Below the pieces are notes generated by a model. That model worked only from the letters and a program-made list of their open reading frames with translations, was not told where the DNA came from and ran no database searches. The position numbers were made by a program, and so were the translations under genes. 64,000 nt of DNA from Candidatus Oxydemutatoraceae bacterium (GTDB taxonomy: Bacteria; Pseudomonadota; Gammaproteobacteria; Poriferisulfidales; Oxydemutatoraceae): positions 64,001 through 128,000 of the forward strand of contig OZ244779.1 in the NCBI GenBank assembly GCA_965219575.1. Direction: 5' to 3'. The stretch's first letter is position 1. The number at the start of each line of letters is the position of its first letter. This document shows, in pieces, positions 211 to 46,654 of this stretch.

Positions 211-1425
211 TTAGTATTTTATTTGTGCAACCGACGGTTTGAGTGTATAACCTTGCATCATCTGCGCAAACTCTATAAGCGTCTCAATACCGCTTTGTTC
301 CGCTTGCCGACACCATTCGCATAGGGCTTCTTTGAGGTTGTGATAATCCTTATGTTTTATCACATACAGCAGTTCGTGCAGTCGGTGTCTAAAATCGCAA
401 ACCAATTTTAAGGTTTCGTTTTTGAGCATAGCTTCGTTGAGTATTGCGTGTTCGTTAATACTAACATGATTGCGATGTTTGGGCAGAATATGTTTGACGC
501 GCATTAACATCTGATGACAAGCGTCGTCCGCCTTCGTAAGTTCGGCTTGCAATACCGGCTTCAGCACCTTGTTGACAAATTCGTAGGTCACATGTAGGCG
601 GCTTTCAAAGAGTGCTTTGGCAGTATCCAAATCGAGATTTTTTTCGGTCTTGTGCTTGCGCGCCGGGATTGGTGCCAAACGCAATATGGTAGCAAGTTTT
701 AACCGATGTAGTATGCAAATGTAAAACCAGCCTATATCAAACTCCCACCACTTTGCCGACAATTTCGCAGAACTAGGATAAGCATGATGATTATTATGCA
801 ATTCCTCTCCGCCTATCAAAATACCGAGATTGGAAAAGTTAGTCGAGTAATCGTCGGTAGGATAATTCCTATAACCTCTGAAATGTCCTATGCCGTTGAC
901 GACACCGGCAGCAAAGAAAGGTATCCACAACATTTGAATTGCCCATATTGCGACCCCGTAAAAACCGAATAGCACAAAGTGCATTGCCAATAATGCCAGA
1001 ACACCGAAATCGCCACGACCGCTATAAAGACTCTTTTCTATAGCATCGTCCGGTGTGCCACGCCCATAGATCTCCATTGTATCGGCATTAGTCGCTTCTT
1101 CGGCATAAAGTTCGGCACCCTGCCATAATACCGAGTATATCCCTTTTACGGTCGGGCTATGCGGGTCGTCGTCGGATTCGCACTTGGCATGGTGCTTGCG
1201 GTGCACCGATACCCACTCTTTGGTTTTCATCCCGGTGGTCAGCCACAACCAAAAACGCATGGCGTGGCACACTGCAGGGTGAAAGTCAACCGCCCGATGC
1301 GCTTGCGAGCGATGCAAGTATAGCGTGACACAAATAATCGTCAAATGGGTTAGGAGTAATGCAACGACTATATATCCCCACCAATCCAACTGCCACAATC
1401 CGTAGCCTGTTAATACATCAAACAT
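211..1425 (-). CDS. desA: Delta-9 acyl-CoA/fatty acid desaturase (DesA-type)
   Basis: His boxes HRSQAH, HRKHH, HNNHH; N-terminal TM helices; WWEFDIGW motif. Confidence 0.9.
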   Translation of the reverse strand: MFDVLTGYGLWQLDWWGYIVVALLLTHLTIICVTLYLHRSQAHRAVDFHPAVCHAMRFWLWLTTGMKTKEWVSVHRKHHAKCESDDDPHSPTVKGIYSVLWQGAELYAEEATNADTMEIYGRGTPDDAIEKSLYSGRGDFGVLALLAMHFVLFGFYGVAIWAIQMLWIPFFAAGVVNGIGHFRGYRNYPTDDYSTNFSNLGILIGGEELHNNHHAYPSSAKLSAKWWEFDIGWFYICILHRLKLATILRLAPIPARKHKTEKNLDLDTAKALFESRLHVTYEFVNKVLKPVLQAELTKADDACHQMLMRVKHILPKHRNHVSINEHAILNEAMLKNETLKLVCDFRHRLHELLYVIKHKDYHNLKEALCEWCRQAEQSGIETLIEFAQMMQGYTLKPSVAQIKY

Positions 1426-1862: not shown

Positions 1863-2235
1863 CTCTTTTCTCCTATTGCTAAATTATAAATAAATACCCT
1901 GCTGAAGCAAGGTTTCGCTACGGATACTAATAGCACAGCGGCATATTGGCGAGATTCGGCAATCCGACGAACGGTAGTAAATATTAGATAGACGGTGTGA
2001 GGTTGTAGGAGGATGGTGCGTTTGGAGTGTACCGATACTGTGCTTGTGCAGACCTGCGGCGACTGTTGAAAAAGTATTGGTAACGCAAAAATCCAACCGC
2101 TTGCGCCAACAAATAATGGTTTCCATAAATTGGATGGATGAATGTATAAATCATGCAGATACGACGGGGCTGTTGAAAAAGTACCGTTCTGCACGAACCC
2201 AACCGCTATGCGCCGAATAATTATCCAACCCACCC

Positions 2236-2261
2236 GTAGGGGCGGACTAACATGTCCGCCC
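2236..2261 (+). repeat. GTAG-type REP hairpin (left of RAYT)
   Basis: GTAG + GGGCGGAC...GTCCGCCC palindrome. Confidence 0.9.
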
Positions 2262-2433
2262 TAAAGTGCCGTTCTGAACAGCCGCAACCGCTTGCGCCAT
2301 TTGGGTTTGGTTTCCATAAATTAACTGGTGTACGATTTTATTTGTGCAGACGCAACGCATCACAATTCTACACAACGCTACGCCGATTGACCTACTGGTT
2401 CAATCGACAGTTCTGTTTTTCAATAGCCCCATG

Positions 2434-3000
2434 TCAACCCCTTGCAACTTTATTTTCTGTATTCAATGTATCGGTTGACCATTTCTGTGGGTTATATTTG
2501 ATGTATTTACGGATTTCATGTAAAAATATCTCATTATCGATAATACCATCCCAATAACTGCGCTGCCATAGCTTATTATCGAATCTCTCCCAGCCGTATC
2601 GCTTAACACCACGAATATAATCTGTGGTTGTCATAGTCTTCCACCATCGCACAATACAACTTAAAGATATTTTTTGGTTATCATGCGCAACGATAGAATG
2701 GCATTGTTGCTGCGCTTCTGTAATAGCAATAATAAAATGAATGTGATTCGGCATCACCATGCACTCATCGCATTTTATACCGGCAAACTGATGCTCAATT
2801 TGATAAAACCAAAACCATAGCATATTACCGGCATCATTACATTGCATTTGATTATTGATAATATCGCCGAATAAATATAATTTATTCCGAACACAGATTG
2901 TGACGAAATACATTCCCGGTTGAGCATAGTCGTATCCTTTCAATCGCATAGATTGACGACGGCGAGCATAAGTTTTAGGTTTGACATTTTTGTTTCTCAT
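2434..3000 (-). CDS. REP-associated tyrosine transposase (RAYT, Y1/HUH, IS200-like fold)
   Basis: RRQSMRLKGYDY...YFVTIC N-terminus, HUH motif MPNHIH, WQRSY, catalytic YIKYNP; flanked by inverted REPs. Confidence 0.92.
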   Translation of the reverse strand: MRNKNVKPKTYARRRQSMRLKGYDYAQPGMYFVTICVRNKLYLFGDIINNQMQCNDAGNMLWFWFYQIEHQFAGIKCDECMVMPNHIHFIIAITEAQQQCHSIVAHDNQKISLSCIVRWWKTMTTTDYIRGVKRYGWERFDNKLWQRSYWDGIIDNEIFLHEIRKYIKYNPQKWSTDTLNTENKVARG

Positions 3001-3165
3001 AAATAATCCTTGTGGGTTAAGAATTGAATAGATGTGTATATCAAAAATTTATCAAGATAGTGAGTTTGTCTATTTAGCAATTCGACAGACGGTAGCAAAT
3101 AAACGACGAGTGGTTGTCGTAATTAGGTGGCGCAAGCGGTTGGGTTTGTGCCGAACGGTACTTTA

Positions 3166-3191
3166 GGGCGGACATGCCAGTCCGCCCCTAC
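3166..3191 (-). repeat. GTAG-type REP hairpin (right of RAYT, inverted)
   Basis: GGGCGGACATGCCAGTCCGCCCCTAC. Confidence 0.9.
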
Positions 3192-3319
3192 GGCTCGGTG
3201 GTTATCGTAAATTCAATGGCGCAAAGCGGTTACGGTTTTGCAGAACAGTATTTTTTCAACAGCCTCACGACACAACCACCCCGTCAGGCTGCGCCTGCCA
3301 CCCCTCCAGAGGAGGGGAA

Positions 3320-4690
3320 TTAACTTGTACAAGTTCGCACGAAATCGCTAAACCGTTCTGCCCACCGCCCGCACGCATTGCGCTGATGGGTATACGCAGC
3401 CAGTAAATTCTTATAGACGATGCCGTCGCGCCCGTTTCCCAAACCTACACCTCTGGAAACTTTATACGCAGTAGGATAACTTTGTTTCATATCAACAAGA
3501 CGGGAATAATGAAACTCGTGTGCGTGGATCACATGACTCGTGTTGTCCTCGCCTCCCCCACCCCATATCGTCTCGCCGCTTTCGTTCAACTCGACATACC
3601 CTCTGCCTTGCGGTGTTTCGTACATTTGTGTATCGGCATCTATCACGCCGCACATTTCAAAACACCGACCCTGCCAATGAATACTACCGGTCAAATACAT
3701 CAGACCACCACATTCGGCATAGACGGGCATGCGGTCTTCTATCGCCTCGCCGACTGCATGACGTAATGCCCGATTCGCTTCGAGCGCACCCGCTTGGGTT
3801 TCGGGGAAACCGCCGCCGATAAACAAACCGTCAATCGGCGGCAGTCGGCTATCTGTCAGACTATTGATAAAGACTAATTCCGCACCGCAACTTTCGAGTG
3901 TCTCCAAATCATCCGGATAATAAAAGTTAAATGCCGAATCTTTGAACACACCGATACGTATGTCCGCATCGGGCTTTTTGTGTTTACTGCAAGTATGCGC
4001 AAGCGGTGTCGCCTGCGCCGCAAGTCGCATAATCTTTTCCAGATCTATTTGCGGTGCGATACACTCCGATAGGGTTTCAATAAATCGTAATGCGCCGGTT
4101 GCTTCGTTGGCGGGAATAAGACCTAAATGTCGCTCGGGCAGTGATAATGCTTTATCTTTCATAACGGCACCCATTACCGGTATATCGGTGTATCGTTCCA
4201 CCGCAGCGATGAGTTTTGATTGGTGGCGGGAGCCGCCTACTCGATTCAATATCACACCGCCGATGGACAATTCGCGGACAAAATTTTCATAGCCCAATAA
4301 CAATGGGGCAATGCCTCGTGTCATGCCTTCGCAATCGACGACCAACAAGATCGGACAACCGAGTAGTTCGGCAAGTGCCGCATTACTGTCGCTGCCGTCT
4401 AAAGAAATACCGTCGTAGAGACCTTTGTTCGCTTCTATCACTGCGGTTGTTCCCGGCGGCGACTTGTCCGCCACCATCGCAACGATCTCGTCGTTTGATT
4501 GAACATTGAAATCAAGGTTATAACATGTGCCACCCGCCGCTGCGGATAGCCATTGTGGGTCTATATAGTCGGGTCCCTTTTTATAAGGTGTGGGGTTCGC
4601 CGCTCGGGCTTTGAGCAATGCGATTAAGGCGGTGGTGAATATCGTTTTGCCCGACGATTTGTGCGTGGCACTAACGAATAATCTATTCAT
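3320..4690 (-). CDS. dsrN: Cobyrinate a,c-diamide synthase family; most likely siroheme amidase DsrN
   Basis: SATHKSSGKT P-loop, KKGPDYID, GGGFPE, AECGG, HEFHY; no cob genes nearby; sox genes in window. Confidence 0.75.
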   Translation of the reverse strand: MNRLFVSATHKSSGKTIFTTALIALLKARAANPTPYKKGPDYIDPQWLSAAAGGTCYNLDFNVQSNDEIVAMVADKSPPGTTAVIEANKGLYDGISLDGSDSNAALAELLGCPILLVVDCEGMTRGIAPLLLGYENFVRELSIGGVILNRVGGSRHQSKLIAAVERYTDIPVMGAVMKDKALSLPERHLGLIPANEATGALRFIETLSECIAPQIDLEKIMRLAAQATPLAHTCSKHKKPDADIRIGVFKDSAFNFYYPDDLETLESCGAELVFINSLTDSRLPPIDGLFIGGGFPETQAGALEANRALRHAVGEAIEDRMPVYAECGGLMYLTGSIHWQGRCFEMCGVIDADTQMYETPQGRGYVELNESGETIWGGGGEDNTSHVIHAHEFHYSRLVDMKQSYPTAYKVSRGVGLGNGRDGIVYKNLLAAYTHQRNACGRWAERFSDFVRTCTS

Positions 4691-10624: not shown

Positions 10625-10907
10625 ACATTCCCCTCCTTTGGAGGGGTGGCCTATGCATTTTGCAATGCATGCGTTTAGCAGTCATGTTGAGGTTCTGAAC
10701 AAAGTCACGCCGATTGACCTGCTGGTTCAATCGGCGGTTCTATTCAGCCTGACGGGGTGGTTGTGTCGTATCTGCATGATTTATACATTCATCCATCCAA
10801 TTTATGGAAACCGTTATTTGTTGGCGCAAGCGGTTGGTGTCGTGCAGAACGGTACTCTAGGGCAGAAATATTAAATTGCCGATTGACCCACCGGCTCAAG
10901 CGGCGGT
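10625..10907. repeat. Mosaic intergenic repeat; contains an empty TIR-insertion site
   Basis: Reverse strand of about 10745-10795 reads ...CATGCAGAT ACGAC ACAACCACCCCGTCAGGCTG. Confidence 0.85.
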
Positions 10908-14227: not shown

Positions 14228-14398
14228 ATGGATGAATGTATAAACATAGTACGGATACGACACAACCACCCCGTCAGGCTGAATAGAACCGCCGATTGAA
14301 CCAGTCGGTCAATCGGCGTGACTTTGTGCAGAACCTTAACATGACTGCTAAACGCATACATTGCAAAATCCATAGGCCACCCCTCCACAGGAGGGGAA
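14228..14398. repeat. Mosaic intergenic repeat (second empty TIR-insertion site)
   Basis: GGATACGACACAACCACCCCGTCAGGCT plus CCGATTGA and CCCCTCC hairpins. Confidence 0.85.
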
Positions 14399-26300: not shown

Positions 26301-29300
26301 GTCATCGACAGACACGGTCACCATCAAACCTGTCCCGTTCTTGCTTGCATCTCCGATTAGCGGCACACCGACCAAAGTTCCCGTCGTAGTGATTACGATG
26401 CTTTGCGGCAACCCGACTGCGCTATACCTTAATACATCATCGTCGGCATCGGCAAAAAACTCGCTGGTCTTCAGCTCGAATGCTTCTCCTACCGTTGCCA
26501 CAACTCGCGATGGCACATCGTCGGACAACACCTGCGGTGGTGTATTGACCCGTACCATAACCTCTGTATCGGTACTGACATTCTTACTATCGGTTGCGGT
26601 GAATGTAATCGTCGCTTCTCCACTTTGCTCGGCGGTTAGCATGAAGGTTATCATCGTATCGGTCGTTATCGTGTCGGTTTGTGTCGGTAGCACCGATACC
26701 CTAGATCGGCTTGACGACATCGCTTCCAGAACAACACGATCGCCGACATCAAAATTAGTGTCCGACACCAGCACCACGACCTGTGTGGTGTTGCCCAGTC
26801 CTGTCGTTTGCTCGGGTGCGGCAATAACCTCAAGCATCGGGGCTTCGTTCCCTTCGACTTCCACCTCAAACCGTTCCGAAACCTTGGAGTTTGACACACC
26901 TCTATCATCGTTCACCGTCGCAGTGATTGTCGCAATACCGGCACCGATAGCGGTAATCTTAATCGTGCGGGTCGTACCCGCACCTGCCACATCAACCCTT
27001 GCAACTTCGGGTATATCGGACTGAACACCGAATACTAGATTGCCGGAAATATCGTCGGCATCGGCATCATTTATTGTTACATTCAATGTGGTTTCTGTTC
27101 CTTCAAACAGCCTGATCCGTTGCAAAGGTAGACCGCTAATCGTCGGCGACGCATTGACACGCCCTGAATAACTATAGCCTTGCGAATACACCACTTCGCT
27201 ATAGCCCTGACCATCGGTATAAGTTCCTTCTACACGAAATAGACTATCACCCACTACTAAGGGAAGTGTGCTGCCATCTTCCAGCAAAATACTAGAATCC
27301 GATATGATGTATTGTGTTCCGCCGGCGTCGTTAATATTCATCCAATTACTCTCCGATGGACAACGCCCTTCATTCCCTTCACAGACTTGCCATTGATATC
27401 CTACAGCCCCACTAACTCCATTGTCGGGATCGTCGGATAATACCATCACCGCTAATGTCGTCTCTCTGCTTCCTATTTCTATGAGGTTTCCTAAAGTTGC
27501 AGAACCATTGTTCTGCTTGTTGACCACCACCGATACCGTCCCGGTCGTGGCGAGCTCTCCGTCGCTTACTCTCACCTCTAAATTAACTGTTGTTCGGGTG
27601 GATGCGGCATCTTTTATATAGTCCGGTGGAATGCCGAGTATTGCCGGGTTACTATGCTCATTGCTCAATATTCCGGAATCCTCGCTCCAGCGATACATTA
27701 AGTTGTCATAGTTCGGATCACTCGCACTCACGCTAATATTTTGCGTATCGCCTTCACCGATCATCTTCGTTGCAGTAGTGCTTATGATAACCGGCCGTTC
27801 ATTCGCAACTCTAAGCGAGTTGGATTGAATAACTACCGATTGCCCTATACTGTCTATAACCGTCAGTTCTAAGCGATAGCTTGTGCCGGTCGCACGCCCT
27901 TCTCTATTATCCGCTATCATGTAGTTCCGATTGGTGGCATTAGCTATCACAACGCCATTTCTATACCACCGATAATCCACCTCGGCTATACCGTTCGCAT
28001 CCTCTATCGTTGAAGTCGAACCCAATAACCATTTATTGCTGCTATCCGGTTCTATGCGCACACTACCGGTCGGCTTCGCATCGACACGCACCGACACGGT
28101 TTCACTATCGGCCGCCCCTTTGCTATCGATTACAGTAAACCTAACCATTGCAGTACCCCCTCTGACACCTTTCAGCGTAATGCGCTCCGTCTTATTACTA
28201 CTTATTCCGGCAATTTGCCTCGGCTCTACTAACACTTCCGATACCACGGATGATGTTAATAACACCCTATCGCCGGCATCAAAATTATCATCCATCACTT
28301 CGACCGAGATCACTATCCTGTCATCCACCGATATCAATTCGGACAGTGATGTGATTGTAATTTTAGGGGCATCGTTCGTTTCTGTGGTCACCACAAATGT
28401 CGTACTACTTACAGAATCGGCTGAACCTTCACCGTCGTCCACCGACACCGTAATCTCCGACCTACCGATATCCGAACCGGTGAAAACACGAAGTGTACGA
28501 ACTAAACCGCCGCCTTCGGCTATGCTCGCAGTTGCAATGTTGTCGTTGCTAGACTTAACACCGGTCTTGAATTGGGTCGGATCGTCGCCAATACCGACAC
28601 TTAATACGACATTCAAATCTTTCACGGTCTCCGTCAATAATCTGATATCCGATATCGGTTCTATAGGTGCTGTGCGTACGATTTGAAGTTGCCCGGTCAG
28701 CGGTGTGCCGCAATCCGGATCTTCGGCAGTGCCACATGCCGGTTGACTTTGATCAAGTCCTACCGCATATTCAAGCGTCGGGTATTGATCGGTTGCGCTA
28801 AAATCCCAATCGGCAGTACTCCAATCGTAATAAATCTCTGTCACACTATTGCCCGGTTGCGTAGGTATTTGCATCTCTACACTGGTCCTAGAAATGCCAC
28901 CGGCACTTACTACGGTGGGGTTATTGGTTTTATTCCAATAACTTTTTTCAACATGACCGTCCCTATTCTCTCCGATTAGTCCGCCGCTATTGGCATCTCC
29001 TCTTACACGACCTGTCGCATAGCTTTTAGTAACTCTGCCGACACCCGAGTTGTTAGCTAGACCTAGATTAACCCCGACTAATCCACCGACCCCGTCTTTG
29101 CCTCTCACATTACCTTGAGCATAGCTGTTTATAATGGCTCCTCTTGCACTCCATCCGACCAAGCCTCCGATATAGCGATTCGCACCGTCCACATTACCTC
29201 TAGCATAACTATTCGTAATCGTACCCTGAAGATTATTACCGACAAAGCCTCCGACTCCGTTATCGCCTTTTACAAATCCGAGAGCATAACTATTCGTAAT

Positions 29301-44863: not shown

Positions 44864-46654
44864 TTATTTTTCCACCTGTAGCACCGCTAAAAATGCCTCT
44901 TGCGGTACGTTGACTTTGCCGATTTGTTTCATACGCTTTTTGCCTGCTTTTTGTTTTTCCAACAACTTACGCTTGCGGGTAATATCTCCGCCGTAACATT
45001 TTGCCGTAACATTCTTGCGCAATGCTTTGGTCGTCGCTCGTGCAATAACGCGAGAACCTATGGCAGCTTGTATCGCAACATCAAACATTTGCCGAGGAAT
45101 TAGGGTTGCCATTTTTTCTACTAAAGTGCGCCCTAGCGTTTGTGCATGATTTCTATGCACTATCGCCGATAACGCGTCAACCCGATTGCCGTTGATCAGC
45201 ATATCCAACCGGATCAAGTCGGCAATCTTATAGCCGGCCAGATAGTAGTCAAAGGATGCATAACCTCTGGTGATAGATTTTAGACGATCAAAGAAATCGT
45301 AGACTATCTCGTTCAACGGCAATTCGTACTCTATCGCAGCTTGTAGACCGACATAATGTATCTTTTTTTGTACGCCTCGCTTTTCTATACATATTTTCAT
45401 CACATCGCCGATATGGTTTTGAGAAACCAGTATCGTTGCTAAAATCATAGGCTCTTCGATCCTTTCCACTTCGTTTGCAGGGGGCAGGGTGTCGGGGTTG
45501 TGCACCTCCACCACTTCGCCGTTTTTGAGTGTGACCCTATAGGTGACGGTCGGCGCAGTGGTGACCAAAGCCTTGCCGTATTCACGCTCTAAACGTTCTT
45601 GTATAACCTCCATGTGCAACATGCCGAGAAAACCGCAACGAAAGCCGAAGCCCAAAGCCTGAGAAGTCTCCGGCTCGTAGACCAACGCAGCATCGTTCAG
45701 GTTCAATTGATCCAAAGCGGCGCGTAAATCCGGATAATCTTCGGAATTGACCGGATAAATCCCGGCAAACACCCGCGGCGGTATTTTCTTGAACCCTGCC
45801 AGTGCTTGTGTTGCCGGGCTTTGTGCGTTAGTCCAGGTATCTCCGACACGGACTTCCTCTATGCGCTTGATGCCGGCGATCACAAACCCGACATCGCCGG
45901 TATACAAACACGAGTGCATCACGCGCTCGGGGGTATAAACCCCCACCGCTTCGACTTTGTGGGTGGTTTTATTCGCCATAGACAGTATTTTACTTCCGAC
46001 TTCCAGTTGACCGTCTACGACCCGCACCAACGCAATCACACCCAAATACTGATCAAACCAAGAGTCTATAATCAACGCTTTCAACGGTGCATCGACCACA
46101 CCTTGCGGCGGCGGAATTTTAGCGACGATATGCTCGAGCAGTGCTTGCACCCCTTCACCGGTTTTAGCACTGACCAAACAAAGCTCGCTTATGTCCAGCC
46201 CGATCAAATCGACGATTTCTTGCTCGACGCGCGCCACCTCGGCAACCGGACGATCAATTTTGTTCAGCACCGGCAGCACGACGAGGTTTTGTTCTACTGC
46301 GGTGTAGCAAACTGCGATGCTCTGCGCTTCGACGCCTTGTGTTGCATCGACGACCAACAGCGCACCCTCGCAAGCGGATAGCGAACGCGATACCTCGTAG
46401 CTGAAGTCCACATGCCCAGGCGTGTCTATAAAATTGAGCTTGTACTGCTCACCGTCGAGTGCGGTATAATTCAACGATACCGCCTGCGCCTTGATCGTGA
46501 TGCCGCGTTCTCGTTCTATATCCATTGTGTCGAGCACCTGTGATACCATCCGGCGACCGCTATATCCGCCGCATAATTCGATAAATCTGTCGGCGAGCGT
46601 TGATTTGCCGTGATCTATATGCGCGATAATTGAGAAATTTCGGGTTTTATTCAT
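44864..46654 (-). CDS. lepA: Elongation factor 4
   Basis: [31 protein letters not shown]. Confidence 0.98.

Follow-up and report, generated by a model that had tools for sequence, protein, structure and literature searches.

A RAYT gene between IS1182-type ends in the genome of a Candidatus Oxydemutatoraceae bacterium: a probable mobile insertion cassette

According to Bertels et al. (2017, PMC5581495), RAYTs spread REPs and REPINs but are usually single-copy and seemingly unable to copy themselves, so that their persistence and their arrival in new genomes call for an explanation. This picture agrees with the preliminary description of the DNA analyzed here, where they were regarded as stationary. 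In the window, i.e. the whole stretch of 64,000 nucleotides under analysis, a RAYT gene is found inside a unit of 1101 bp (2166-3266) that has inverted ends and the same five bases, ACGAC, on both sides. This arrangement raises the question of how the gene came to its present site. From the sequence of the locus and its relatives we consider the unit to be, with good probability, a non-autonomous derivative of an IS1182-family element, i.e. a mobile insertion cassette, in which the RAYT would be a passenger moved in trans. Full-text literature searches yielded no report of a RAYT inside a unit bounded by terminal inverted repeats with a target duplication.

The unit and its passenger

The inverted ends at 2166-3266 and the ACGAC on both sides, as given in the preliminary description, were confirmed. 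The arms (2168-2214 and 3218-3264) comprise 47 nt and are imperfect, with 83% complementarity. The left terminal inverted repeat (2166-2214, forward strand) starts with the core GGGGCTGTTGAAAAAGT (2166-2182), which is followed by a 'B' module. In the right terminal inverted repeat (3218-3266, reverse strand) the inverse of the core, read from 3266, is GAGGCTGTTGAAAAAAT, and a B module follows here as well. Compared to the family consensus GGGGCTGTTGAAAAAGT, the left end agrees at 16/17 and the right end at 15/17 positions, and the core CTGTTGAAAAA is identical. ACGAC occupies 2161-2165 on the left and 3267-3271 on the right. The left arm of the unit is at the same time a complete MITE of 265 bp (2166-2430, forward strand) with a degenerate inner end at 2416-2430. 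The bases flanking this MITE do not match (ACGAC versus ATGTC), i.e. a duplication around the MITE alone is lacking, and this was counted in favor of the unit having moved as a whole.

The RAYT is the sole open reading frame of the unit with a family match, and an IS1182-family transposase is absent inside. The gene (2434-3000, reverse strand) encodes a protein of 188 aa with an intact HUH motif (H86, H88) and an intact Tyr149; all 13 sequences of an alignment that includes the query share these three residues. Pfam Y1_Tnp scores 24.1 bits against the protein (cut-off 23), and the best NCBIfam match is the RAYT equivalog NF047646 with 49.1 bits (E = 5e-13), below its cut-off of 80. A six-frame search of the whole genome with PF01797 gave no match at E ≤ 0.001, a result that is uninformative because the match is weak and the protein scan does score. 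Among 1057 homologues found, several bear the source annotation 'REP element-mobilizing transposase RayT', and the cluster of 99% identical RAYTs (P0001) has 10 member sequences. No PDB entry matched the RAYT sequence at E ≤ 0.1. In metagenome scans, the protein found relatives at 33-40% identity only, and the 28-mer spanning the junction between the inner end and the RAYT had no match.

The region upstream of the gene (3001-3160, reverse strand) is conserved with congener RAYT loci and probably contains the native promoter or leader; similarity to the RAYT loci of the congeners G001 and G004 stops near 3160. The gene is placed between two inverted GTAG-tagged REP hairpins, with 72-nt arms that are 86% complementary. 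One hairpin is located downstream (2236-2261, forward strand; GTAG GGGCGGAC taacat GTCCGCCC) and the other, in inverted orientation, upstream of the RAYT (3166-3191, reverse strand). GTAG-tagged hairpins of this type occur 272 times genome-wide (128 + 144) and thus represent a high-copy extragenic repeat. The passenger has everything that belongs to a native RAYT unit, namely the upstream region, the intact Y1/HUH gene and the two inverted GTAG-REPs together with 'B' modules. The RAYT presumably acts on the GTAG-REP hairpins and not on the cassette ends.

The target site and the origin of the ends

After removal of the unit the flanks join to CATGCAGAT-ACGAC-ACAACCACCCCGTCAGGCTG. The left half of this target is a truncated repeat unit (2059-2160, forward strand) that consists of a GCGA-CTGTTGAAAAAGT cap, a B module and a 'T' module ending in GCAGAT; it is absent from G003, the closest congener. 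The right half is a 'U' module, ACAACCACCCCGTCAGGCTG (3272-3291, forward strand), of which about 157 are present genome-wide. As had been proposed, the removal recreates a site that exists uninterrupted in the window: the exact 34-mer lies at 10745-10778 (reverse strand), as a site elsewhere and not as an allele of the RAYT locus. Genome-wide it has 2 exact occurrences and 12 with up to 3 mismatches. The nearly identical empty site that had been placed at about 14251-14280 was likewise found, with the part GGATACGACACAACCACCCCGTCAGGCTG present at 14253-14281 (forward strand). Short contigs from 4 runs of one study hold the stretch and contain joints that skip from 2160 to 3267. These joints were rejected as an empty allele or a trace of excision, since their sides are shorter than 31 letters and other uninterrupted T|U copies explain them.

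The same ends are widespread in this genome. With at most 1 mismatch, the 17-mer end matches 190 times on the forward and 170 times on the reverse strand (about 360 ends), and adjacent ends form 189 pairs with size peaks at about 201, 245 and 289 bp. Exact flank duplications of 5 bp are present at 29/176 and of 4 bp at 27/176 of the pairs of 100-500 bp, compared to shuffled expectations of 1.6 and 2.4, respectively, and a shuffle maximum of 6. The 29 exact 5-bp duplications comprise 22 different 5-mers. Thus, ACGAC is a target duplication and not, as the preliminary description had also considered, an invariant part of every repeat copy. It is the commonest 5-mer at the T|U target (25/77 T-side and 17/108 U-side junctions), and the chance of the ACGAC pair taken alone is about 0.05, i.e. 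only moderately unlikely; that the pair is a real duplication follows from the rebuilding of one split target upon removal together with the strong family-wide signal. Some of the MITE duplications are located in unique DNA, e.g. beside a tRNA-like end or inside a DDE_Tnp_1 gene. The preferred site of the ends in this genome is the T|U junction, between a 'T' end GCAGAY and a 'U' start RCRACCACCCC, and not the REP loop. As about 180 paired short copies with the same 17-bp ends, 4-5-bp duplications and distinct size classes (201/245/289 bp), these elements resemble the MITEs of DDE-type insertion sequences. Unlike those, they are filled with a patchwork of REP hairpins and BIME-like modules and not with deleted IS sequence, and only about 17 bp are shared with the parent IS. 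Copies at 45059 and 2129533, and likewise at 411519 and 476860, are 100% identical over about 209 bp and have differing sites and duplications; judged by such pairs, the MITE family apparently was active recently.

The preliminary description had likened the ends to IS1182/IS5-type termini, and the IS1182 type is supported by the congeners. Full-length IS1182-family elements with the same 17-bp ends were found in G001, G003 and G004 (n = 19, 1461-1827 bp, ends GGG[GA]CTGTTGAAAAAGT). Their target duplications are exact 4-bp repeats in 16/19 and an exact 5-bp repeat in 1/19 cases. Intact transposase ORFs of these elements encode 521-580 aa. The 521-aa protein of G004 scores 388.4 bits with NF033551 (IS1182, cut-off 270), and the two halves of a frameshifted copy in G003 score 83.5 bits with DUF772 and 69.2 bits with DDE_Tnp_1_6. 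About 11 partner loci are present in G001, about 12 in G004 and 1, the frameshifted one, in G003. The elements of G001 and G004 are mostly inserted in the loop of the GTAG-REP hairpin, and the G003 copy is inserted in the T|U type of target. When genome contigs were scanned with the 521-aa transposase, all close relatives came from records titled 'candidatus Porisulfidus'; outside of these records there were one 28% match and one short fragment. In the genome under study (98.9% complete, a single contig, with plasmids, if any, outside the assembly), neither DUF772 nor DDE_Tnp_1_6 was detected, and a transposase remnant of about 32 codons covers residues 6-48. Thus, the action of such an enzyme here must be in trans, and the full-length transposase gene with these ends, for which a search had been recommended, is found in congeners and not in this genome.

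Other elements of this genome were considered as partner. Neither end pairs of up to 2.5 kb nor pairs of up to 15 kb with matching 5-mers contain a DDE transposase with these ends; the long end pairs contain IS110-family genes, a PDDEXK_2 gene or ordinary genes, and the IS110 and PDDEXK_2 assignments were checked with Pfam. In the whole-genome inventory of repeats of at least 500 bp, no element has the cap ends; judging by their proteins, we take the elements of this inventory to be IS3-like, an rve-type 1.9-kb element, two IS1595-like types and a TnpB-like element. Tn3 elements, whose ends begin with GGGG and which generate 5-bp duplications, were rejected, as PF01526 has no match in the genome. 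The one PF01609 gene, presumably IS1380-like from its ends, is itself interrupted by a MITE. IS1016/IS1595 elements have 'GGGgctg' ends and 7-9-bp duplications, and they were dropped because flank matches of 6-7 bp are nearly absent in the MITE family.

Copies, orthologous loci and competing explanations

Three RAYT copies are present in this genome, namely copy 1 in the window (100%), copy 2 (99%) and a truncated, older copy 3 (87-88%); a duplication of the flanks is found at copy 1 only. G004 has five RAYT copies, and none was found in G002 and G003. Copy 2 is located about 1.03 Mb away and is 99.5% identical over exactly 2166-3266, with 5 differences, 3 of which fall within the final 44 bp on the right. 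Its left boundary is the same to the base and the left 265 bp are identical, with unrelated sequence beyond, and on the right side the similarity continues for about 25 bp into a U module that is present at both loci. With GAAGT on the left and ACGAC on the right, the flanks of copy 2 form no matching duplication. Copy 3, 89% identical to the unit, has the same upstream end junction with the RAYT and also lacks a duplication. This junction implies that the cassette form is older than the recent duplication and that two or more new loci must have received it.

Orthologous loci do not always contain the RAYT: downstream of cobB, a cobyrinic acid a,c-diamide synthase-like gene (window 3320-4690), it is missing in 4/4 congeners, and G003 has about 105 bp where this genome has about 1240 bp. 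At the locus of copy 2 the flanks are 32 bp apart in G001 and about 190 bp apart in G004. The RAYT is absent from the loci of copies 1 and 2 in every comparable congener. As for the RAYT loci of G001 and G004 themselves, 3/6 of those looked at (L003, L010, L011) have REP arrays but no such ends within 500 bp, and at the other 3/6 the ends come from neighboring MITEs and do not enclose the gene. Thus, the enclosure of the RAYT is seen in this genome only. With three copies, and with copy-1 and copy-2 loci that are not shared by the congeners, the RAYT described here does not conform to the pattern 'typically one copy, vertically inherited'.

In the mechanism that we favor, an IS1182-family DDE transposase supplied in trans would have bound the two outer ends, moved the entire 1101-bp unit and inserted it by a staggered cut at the T|U site of another intergenic repeat, and repair of this cut would have duplicated ACGAC. 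Copy 2 may have arisen by the same process or by a later one. The earlier suggestion that the RAYT was moved as cargo by a DDE enzyme in trans is therewith supported, the mobilization itself being what we infer. Several observations speak against this reading. Copies 2 and 3 are without a matching duplication, ACGAC is already the commonest 5-mer at the target, and the right end departs from the consensus at two positions. The full-length elements mostly have 4-bp duplications and reside in REP loops, whereas the unit has 5 bp and a different target. A transposase is not resident now, yet some MITE copies are identical. A gene-conversion tract might have ended where the three right-arm differences between copies 1 and 2 are found.

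Recombination might also account for the locus, although we consider this unlikely. A plain MITE would have inserted first at the T|U site and made the ACGAC pair, and the RAYT would have been copied in later by RecA-type recombination or gene conversion through REP and B modules common to the MITE interior and the RAYT flanks, with no DDE step moving the RAYT. Since MITE interiors share REP, B and T modules with native RAYT flanks, homology arms of 50-260 bp exist. The clustering of 3/5 differences within 44 bp at the outer edge of the right arm, next to 265 identical bp on the left, the missing duplication at copy 2 and the missing transposase are likewise consistent with such a course of events. 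Evidence against it comes from the left arm, whose identity with copy 2 extends as far as the first base of the end, with unrelated sequence outside, from the right arm, which is 43/46 identical to copy 2 whereas the B modules of different MITEs differ far more, and from the end-to-RAYT junction that the older copy 3 has in common with the unit.

Transposition of the unit and the MITEs by the RAYT itself, through single-strand Y1/HUH chemistry and with ACGAC as target or cleavage motif instead of a duplication, appears highly improbable. The RAYT is intact with conserved HUH motif and tyrosine, GTAG-REP hairpins lie inside the MITEs, and the three genomes rich in ends (about 340-410 each) all have RAYTs, while none was found in G003 (94 ends) and G002 (5 ends), as judged from 5 related genomes only; these observations would fit such a movement. 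On the other side, G003 has its 94 ends although no RAYT was found there. The ends, moreover, belong to a DDE element, the REP hairpins of the unit are internal and not at its boundaries, and the flank duplications are of 22 different sequences. A guide-specified Y1 target, as known from IS200/IS605 elements, would not yield many different duplications. This point on Y1 targets also rests on passages of Nunvar et al. (2010, PMC2817692). Slightly less probable still is a unit that was never mobile, with a resident RAYT, ends contributed by unrelated neighboring MITEs and a chance ACGAC pair. The high density of ends, about one per 5-6 kb, and the frequency of ACGAC at the target would allow for this, but the outer flanks rebuild a single contiguous target, the RAYT is absent at the locus in all four congeners, and an almost identical copy with the same boundaries exists about 1 Mb away, the last two of these findings already contradicting this explanation.

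Relation to known elements and possible layering

Mobile insertion cassettes (MICs) consist of IS ends around passenger genes, contain no transposase and are mobilized in trans. Papers in which this term appears include PMC3913671 and PMC4337579. The unit resembles such cassettes in its two IS-type ends, its duplication, the lack of such a transposase inside, its passenger gene and the existence of an autonomous relative with the same ends. It differs from them in that the passenger is itself a (domesticated) transposase, one from a different superfamily and accompanied by the REPs that are its substrates, that one arm of the unit is a whole MITE and that the autonomous partner is not in this genome.

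With regard to RAYTs flanked by inverted REPs, as described in passages of Nunvar et al. (2010, PMC2817692) and Bertels et al. (2017, PMC5581495), the conserved Y1/HUH gene, the two inverted GTAG-REPs and the abundance of the REP are in agreement. Unlike the RAYTs of these passages, the one analyzed here has three copies, two of them 99.5% identical, is bounded by DDE-type ends with a target duplication and is absent from orthologous loci of congeners. IS200/IS605 elements, according to the relevant passages of Nunvar et al. (2010, PMC2817692), are without inverted ends and target duplications. The RAYT shares their Y1/HUH fold family, but the unit has both inverted ends and a duplication, and the IS200 profile NF033573 scores only 16.8 bits against the RAYT protein (cut-off 55).

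The locus offers a concrete route for a RAYT, in that the ends of an unrelated DDE insertion sequence surround the gene with its REPs, which would be duplicated as cargo. It suggests that arrays of REP/BIME-type modules can be mobilized by DDE enzymes when capped by 17-bp ends, and some apparently RAYT-driven REP expansion may be DDE-driven. It is also a warning for annotation, as MITE-like and REP-like repeats can be identical pieces of DNA. More tentatively, and with somewhat more doubt than confidence on our side, two transposon systems might have merged into a layered one in this genus. REP hairpins made by the RAYT, and intergenic repeats related to them, would possibly serve the IS1182-family element as landing pads. 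Its 17-bp ends might have become wrapped around REP/BIME modules, giving rise to hundreds of MITEs, and the element might have captured the RAYT gene itself. The spread of REPs and the duplication of the RAYT in this genome would then perhaps result largely from cut-and-paste or copy-and-paste by DDE enzymes rather than from HUH chemistry. If this layered reading were true, an immobile 'domesticated' RAYT would have become mobile again as a passenger and could move from one genome to another along with the repeats on which it acts.

Insertion sequences that target REPs include IS1397/ISKpn1 and IS621. ISPpu9 is another one, according to PMC8450116. The IS1182-family element of G001 and G004 is similar to them in its predominant location in the GTAG-REP loop; it differs from those named in its family, and the preferred site in the genome analyzed here is the T|U junction. 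As a separate observation, the IS110-family elements of this genome are located in REP loops in 5/5 copies looked at.

Architecture and termini of the RAYT cassette

The cassette at window 2166-3266 (copy 1, 1101 bp) encloses a RAYT (REP-associated tyrosine transposase) gene on the minus strand (2434-3000), whose 188-aa product matches Pfam Y1_Tnp with 24.1 bits (cut-off 23). Its best NCBIfam match is REP_Tyr_transpos with 49 bits, which does not reach the equivalog cut-off of 80. The protein has 1057 database homologues, several of which carry the source-given name RayT, and H86 and H88 (HUH) as well as Tyr149 are invariant in an alignment of 13 sequences. GTAG-tagged hairpins are located on either side of the gene (2236-2261, plus strand; 3166-3191, minus strand) within inverted arms of 72 nt that are 86% complementary, and 272 hairpins of this type are present in G000, the genome holding the window. 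The gene and its two flanking hairpins thus show the classical RAYT/REP layout as described by Nunvar et al. 2010 (PMC2817692).

Outside the REPs the cassette ends in inverted arms of 47 nt (83% complementary) with the invariant core GGGGCTGTTGAAAAAGT, and it is flanked on both sides by ACGAC. Removal of the cassette together with one ACGAC yields a 34-mer that is found exactly at window 10778..10745 (minus strand) and nearly so at 14253-14281. The inverted ends, ACGAC flanks and uninterrupted sites of the preliminary description were therefore all recovered at the coordinates given there. Taken alone, the ACGAC pair is just moderately improbable (chance expectation of about 0.05), ACGAC being the commonest target 5-mer.

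A MITE family with the same ends and its target sites

The 17-bp terminal core of the cassette (cap end) was matched with at most one mismatch 190 + 170 times in the 2.37-Mb G000 genome. Neighbouring forward and reverse ends form 189 pairs, the sizes of which peak at ~201, 245 and 289 bp. Among the pairs of 100-500 bp, identical 5-mers lie directly outside the ends in 29/176 and identical 4-mers in 27/176, as compared to means of 1.6 and 2.4, respectively, and a maximum of 6 for shuffled pairings. As many as 22 different 5-mers are represented in the 29 exact 5-bp duplications, some of which lie in unique sequence. With such varied duplications across the family, ACGAC has to lie outside the repeat proper, and the pair around the cassette is a target duplication, as had been supposed, rather than an invariant part of each repeat copy. 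ACGAC/GTCGT accounts for nine of the 29 because the family favours one site, the junction between the end of a 'T' module (GCAGAY) and the start of the 'U' module (RCRACCACCCCGTCAGGCTG) of another intergenic repeat. Of 597 end matches, 77 abut the T side and 108 the U side of such a junction; just 24 T|U sites, ten of them with ACGAC, are still uninterrupted, versus at least 185 junctions in which a cap end is inserted.

Size-class consensuses begin with the end core, after which come 'B' modules, GTAG-REP hairpins and T modules. The MITE interiors are REP mosaics, composed of the modules that also flank RAYT in G000 and in its congeners, and all subfamilies share no more than ~17 bp. Within the five related genomes compared (genus 'candidatus Porisulfidus' in the record titles), cap ends number 360 in G000, 343 in G001, 5 in G002, 94 in G003 and 413 in G004. 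None occur in 36 genomes of nine other genera; of all genomes searched, only those of this genus have cap ends. Some MITE copies with 100% identity over ~209 bp occupy separate sites and differ in their duplications (45059 and 2129533; 411519 and 476860). A 293-bp MITE with a (C)ACAT duplication interrupts a DDE_Tnp_1 gene near its 3' end (G000:C1:1764033-1766157, outside the window), which clearly shows that a member of the family has inserted into unique coding sequence.

Several further features of these repeats were observed. At G000:C1:470160-471145, outside the window, five or more cap units follow one another head to tail every ~192 bp, each preceded by ...CAGATACGAC. Some cap ends (window 2059-2160; G000:C1:27220 and 426670) start with GCGA-CTGTTGAAAAAGT directly after a T-type 5-mer and lack GGGG; the opposite side at 27220 reads CCCC-ACGCA-GCGAC, which looks like a 9-bp duplication or a remodelled end. 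Genome-wide, the T|U repeat has conserved flanks and a variable central 5-mer (ACGAC, CCTTA, ACGCC, ACGCA, CTTCG and others), also inside the window (e.g. 10765-10769 and 14257-14261); these central 5-mers may be excision footprints.

IS1182-family elements of the congeners and their remnant in G000

No DDE transposase lies between long cap-end pairs of G000. The closest congener, G003, has a frameshifted gene encoding DUF772 and DDE_Tnp_1_6 domains between two ends that span 1461 bp and are inserted at a T|U site (ACGAC / ACGCT). A search of the genus with the N-terminal half of this gene retrieved one locus in G003 and fragments only in G002 and G000, as against ~11 loci in G001 and ~12 in G004, where the open frames measure 519-645 aa. 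The 521-aa protein of G004 scores 388 bits against NCBIfam IS1182 (cut-off 270). All 19 full-length copies inspected (L034-L052, from 22 loci) have the ends GGG[GA]CTGTTGAAAAAGT and a length of 1461-1827 bp; as read by eye, exact duplications of 4 bp are present in 16/19 and of 5 bp in 1/19, with none in 2/19. The suggested resemblance of the cassette ends to DDE-type (IS1182/IS5) termini is thus borne out, for IS1182, by the congeners, and the full-length transposase with these ends that was to be sought in G000 exists instead in G001, G003 (frameshifted) and G004.

Nearly all full-length elements of G001 and G004 (L024, L031, L032, L034-L051) occupy the loop of a single kind of REP hairpin, GGGAGGGC-ATGTTA-GCCCTCCC, with the duplication ATGT/ACAT. 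The cap ends of G000 and G003 favour the T|U junction rather than a REP loop, and target preference appears to differ between the lineages. The IS and REP systems are entangled: in two congeners the IS has inserted into REP loops, and REP modules make up its MITEs. IS110-family elements (Pfam DEDD_Tnp_IS110 and Transposase_20; L065:1-1751, G000:C1:1375400-1377150, and four further copies) also sit in the GTAG-REP hairpin loop (GGGCGGAC..|..TCCGCCC) in 5/5 examined, each hairpin within a cap-family MITE.

In G000 (one contig, 98.9% complete) neither DUF772 and DDE_Tnp_1_6 nor Tn3-type proteins gave a match. Its single DDE_Tnp_1 gene is unrelated (open frame of 508 aa) and belongs to an element with the ends CCCTAAATCCGCA, which we take to be IS1380-like. 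The IS3, IS1595, IS1380 and TnpB labels in our repeat inventory of G000 are presumptive and follow protein appearance, whereas the IS110, PDDEXK_2 and IS1182 assignments were tested by profile. Of the IS1182-family gene, all that is left is ~32 codons with stops (genome 1975557-1975652). Given identical MITEs and no enzyme gene, the enzyme was therefore lost recently from G000 or supplied by DNA not in the assembly.

Cassette copies, empty loci and possible routes of movement

RAYT is absent downstream of cobB (cobyrinic acid a,c-diamide synthase-like gene, window 3320-4690) in all four congeners, and G003 has ~105 bp there in place of ~1240 bp in G000. At the locus of copy 2 (genome 1094633-1095732, minus strand; five positions differ from copy 1) the flanks are 32 bp apart in G001 and ~190 bp apart in G004, so that orthologous loci lacking RAYT, as sought by the preliminary description, exist for both copies. 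In G003 the same flanks (L056 and L059 versus L005 of G000), adjacent in G000, G001 and G004, are ~1.2 Mb apart and inverted; thus a rearrangement breakpoint of G003 falls at this repeat-rich site. Compared with the congeners, RAYT similarity of G000 extends no further than the gene plus ~160 bp upstream, with no common flanks, and the RAYT loci of G001 and G004 have REP arrays, the gene not being enclosed by cap ends.

The sequence itself establishes the architecture of the cassette, the identity of its ends with IS1182-family ends, duplications throughout the MITE family, a missing enzyme gene and an occurrence at two loci that is specific to the lineage. The preliminary description had RAYT moved as cargo by a DDE enzyme acting in trans. 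The ends, the duplication, the new loci and the lack of a resident enzyme agree with this, and we infer the movement itself from them; of the further copies it had asked to be counted, copies 2 and 3 were found, neither with a matching duplication. The enzyme would bind the two outer ends, make a staggered cut of 4-5 bp at a T|U site and move the whole unit, and the substrate of RAYT would be the GTAG hairpins rather than the cassette ends. Alternatively, a RAYT segment may have recombined into a resident MITE, which we consider unlikely. This possibility follows from the unmatched flanks of copy 2 (GAAGT on one side, ACGAC on the other) and of copy 3 (truncated, 89%), together with the clustering of 3/5 copy differences in the outer right arm (3223, 3234 and 3249), a pattern compatible with local gene conversion or with the border of a conversion tract. 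In favour of movement as cargo, the similarity of copy 2 begins precisely with base 1 of the left end, copy 3 keeps the upstream end-B-REP-B-promoter junction of the cassette, and the left arm (2166-2430) is itself an entire MITE, inner end included, that no separate duplication surrounds, ACGAC bracketing the full 1101 bp.

The unit has the architecture of a mobile insertion cassette, a known kind of non-autonomous IS derivative with cargo; what is new is that the cargo is a RAYT with its own REPs. RAYTs are described by Bertels et al. 2017 (PMC5581495) as single-copy and apparently unable to copy themselves, and in G000 a mechanism becomes visible by which such a gene would be duplicated.

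A second cargo-like unit (L063:150-2110, G000:C1:433049-435009) spans 1961 bp between outer cap ends and carries a PDDEXK_2 'nuclease family transposase' gene split in two ORFs. It has matching 5-mers TGCGT at a T|U-type target; with TGCGT/ACGCA fairly common among target 5-mers, the match may be due to chance. Elsewhere in the window, a fatty-acid desaturase ORF (window 211-1425, minus strand, 404 aa) matches an ISL3 DDE transposase profile over residues 282-392 (E = 5e-7, 30 bits, cut-off 23). The whole ORF is kept in G002 at 76% DNA identity, which makes its ISL3-like C-terminal stretch look like a fusion that has become fixed, or the relic of a domain, rather than a recent insertion.
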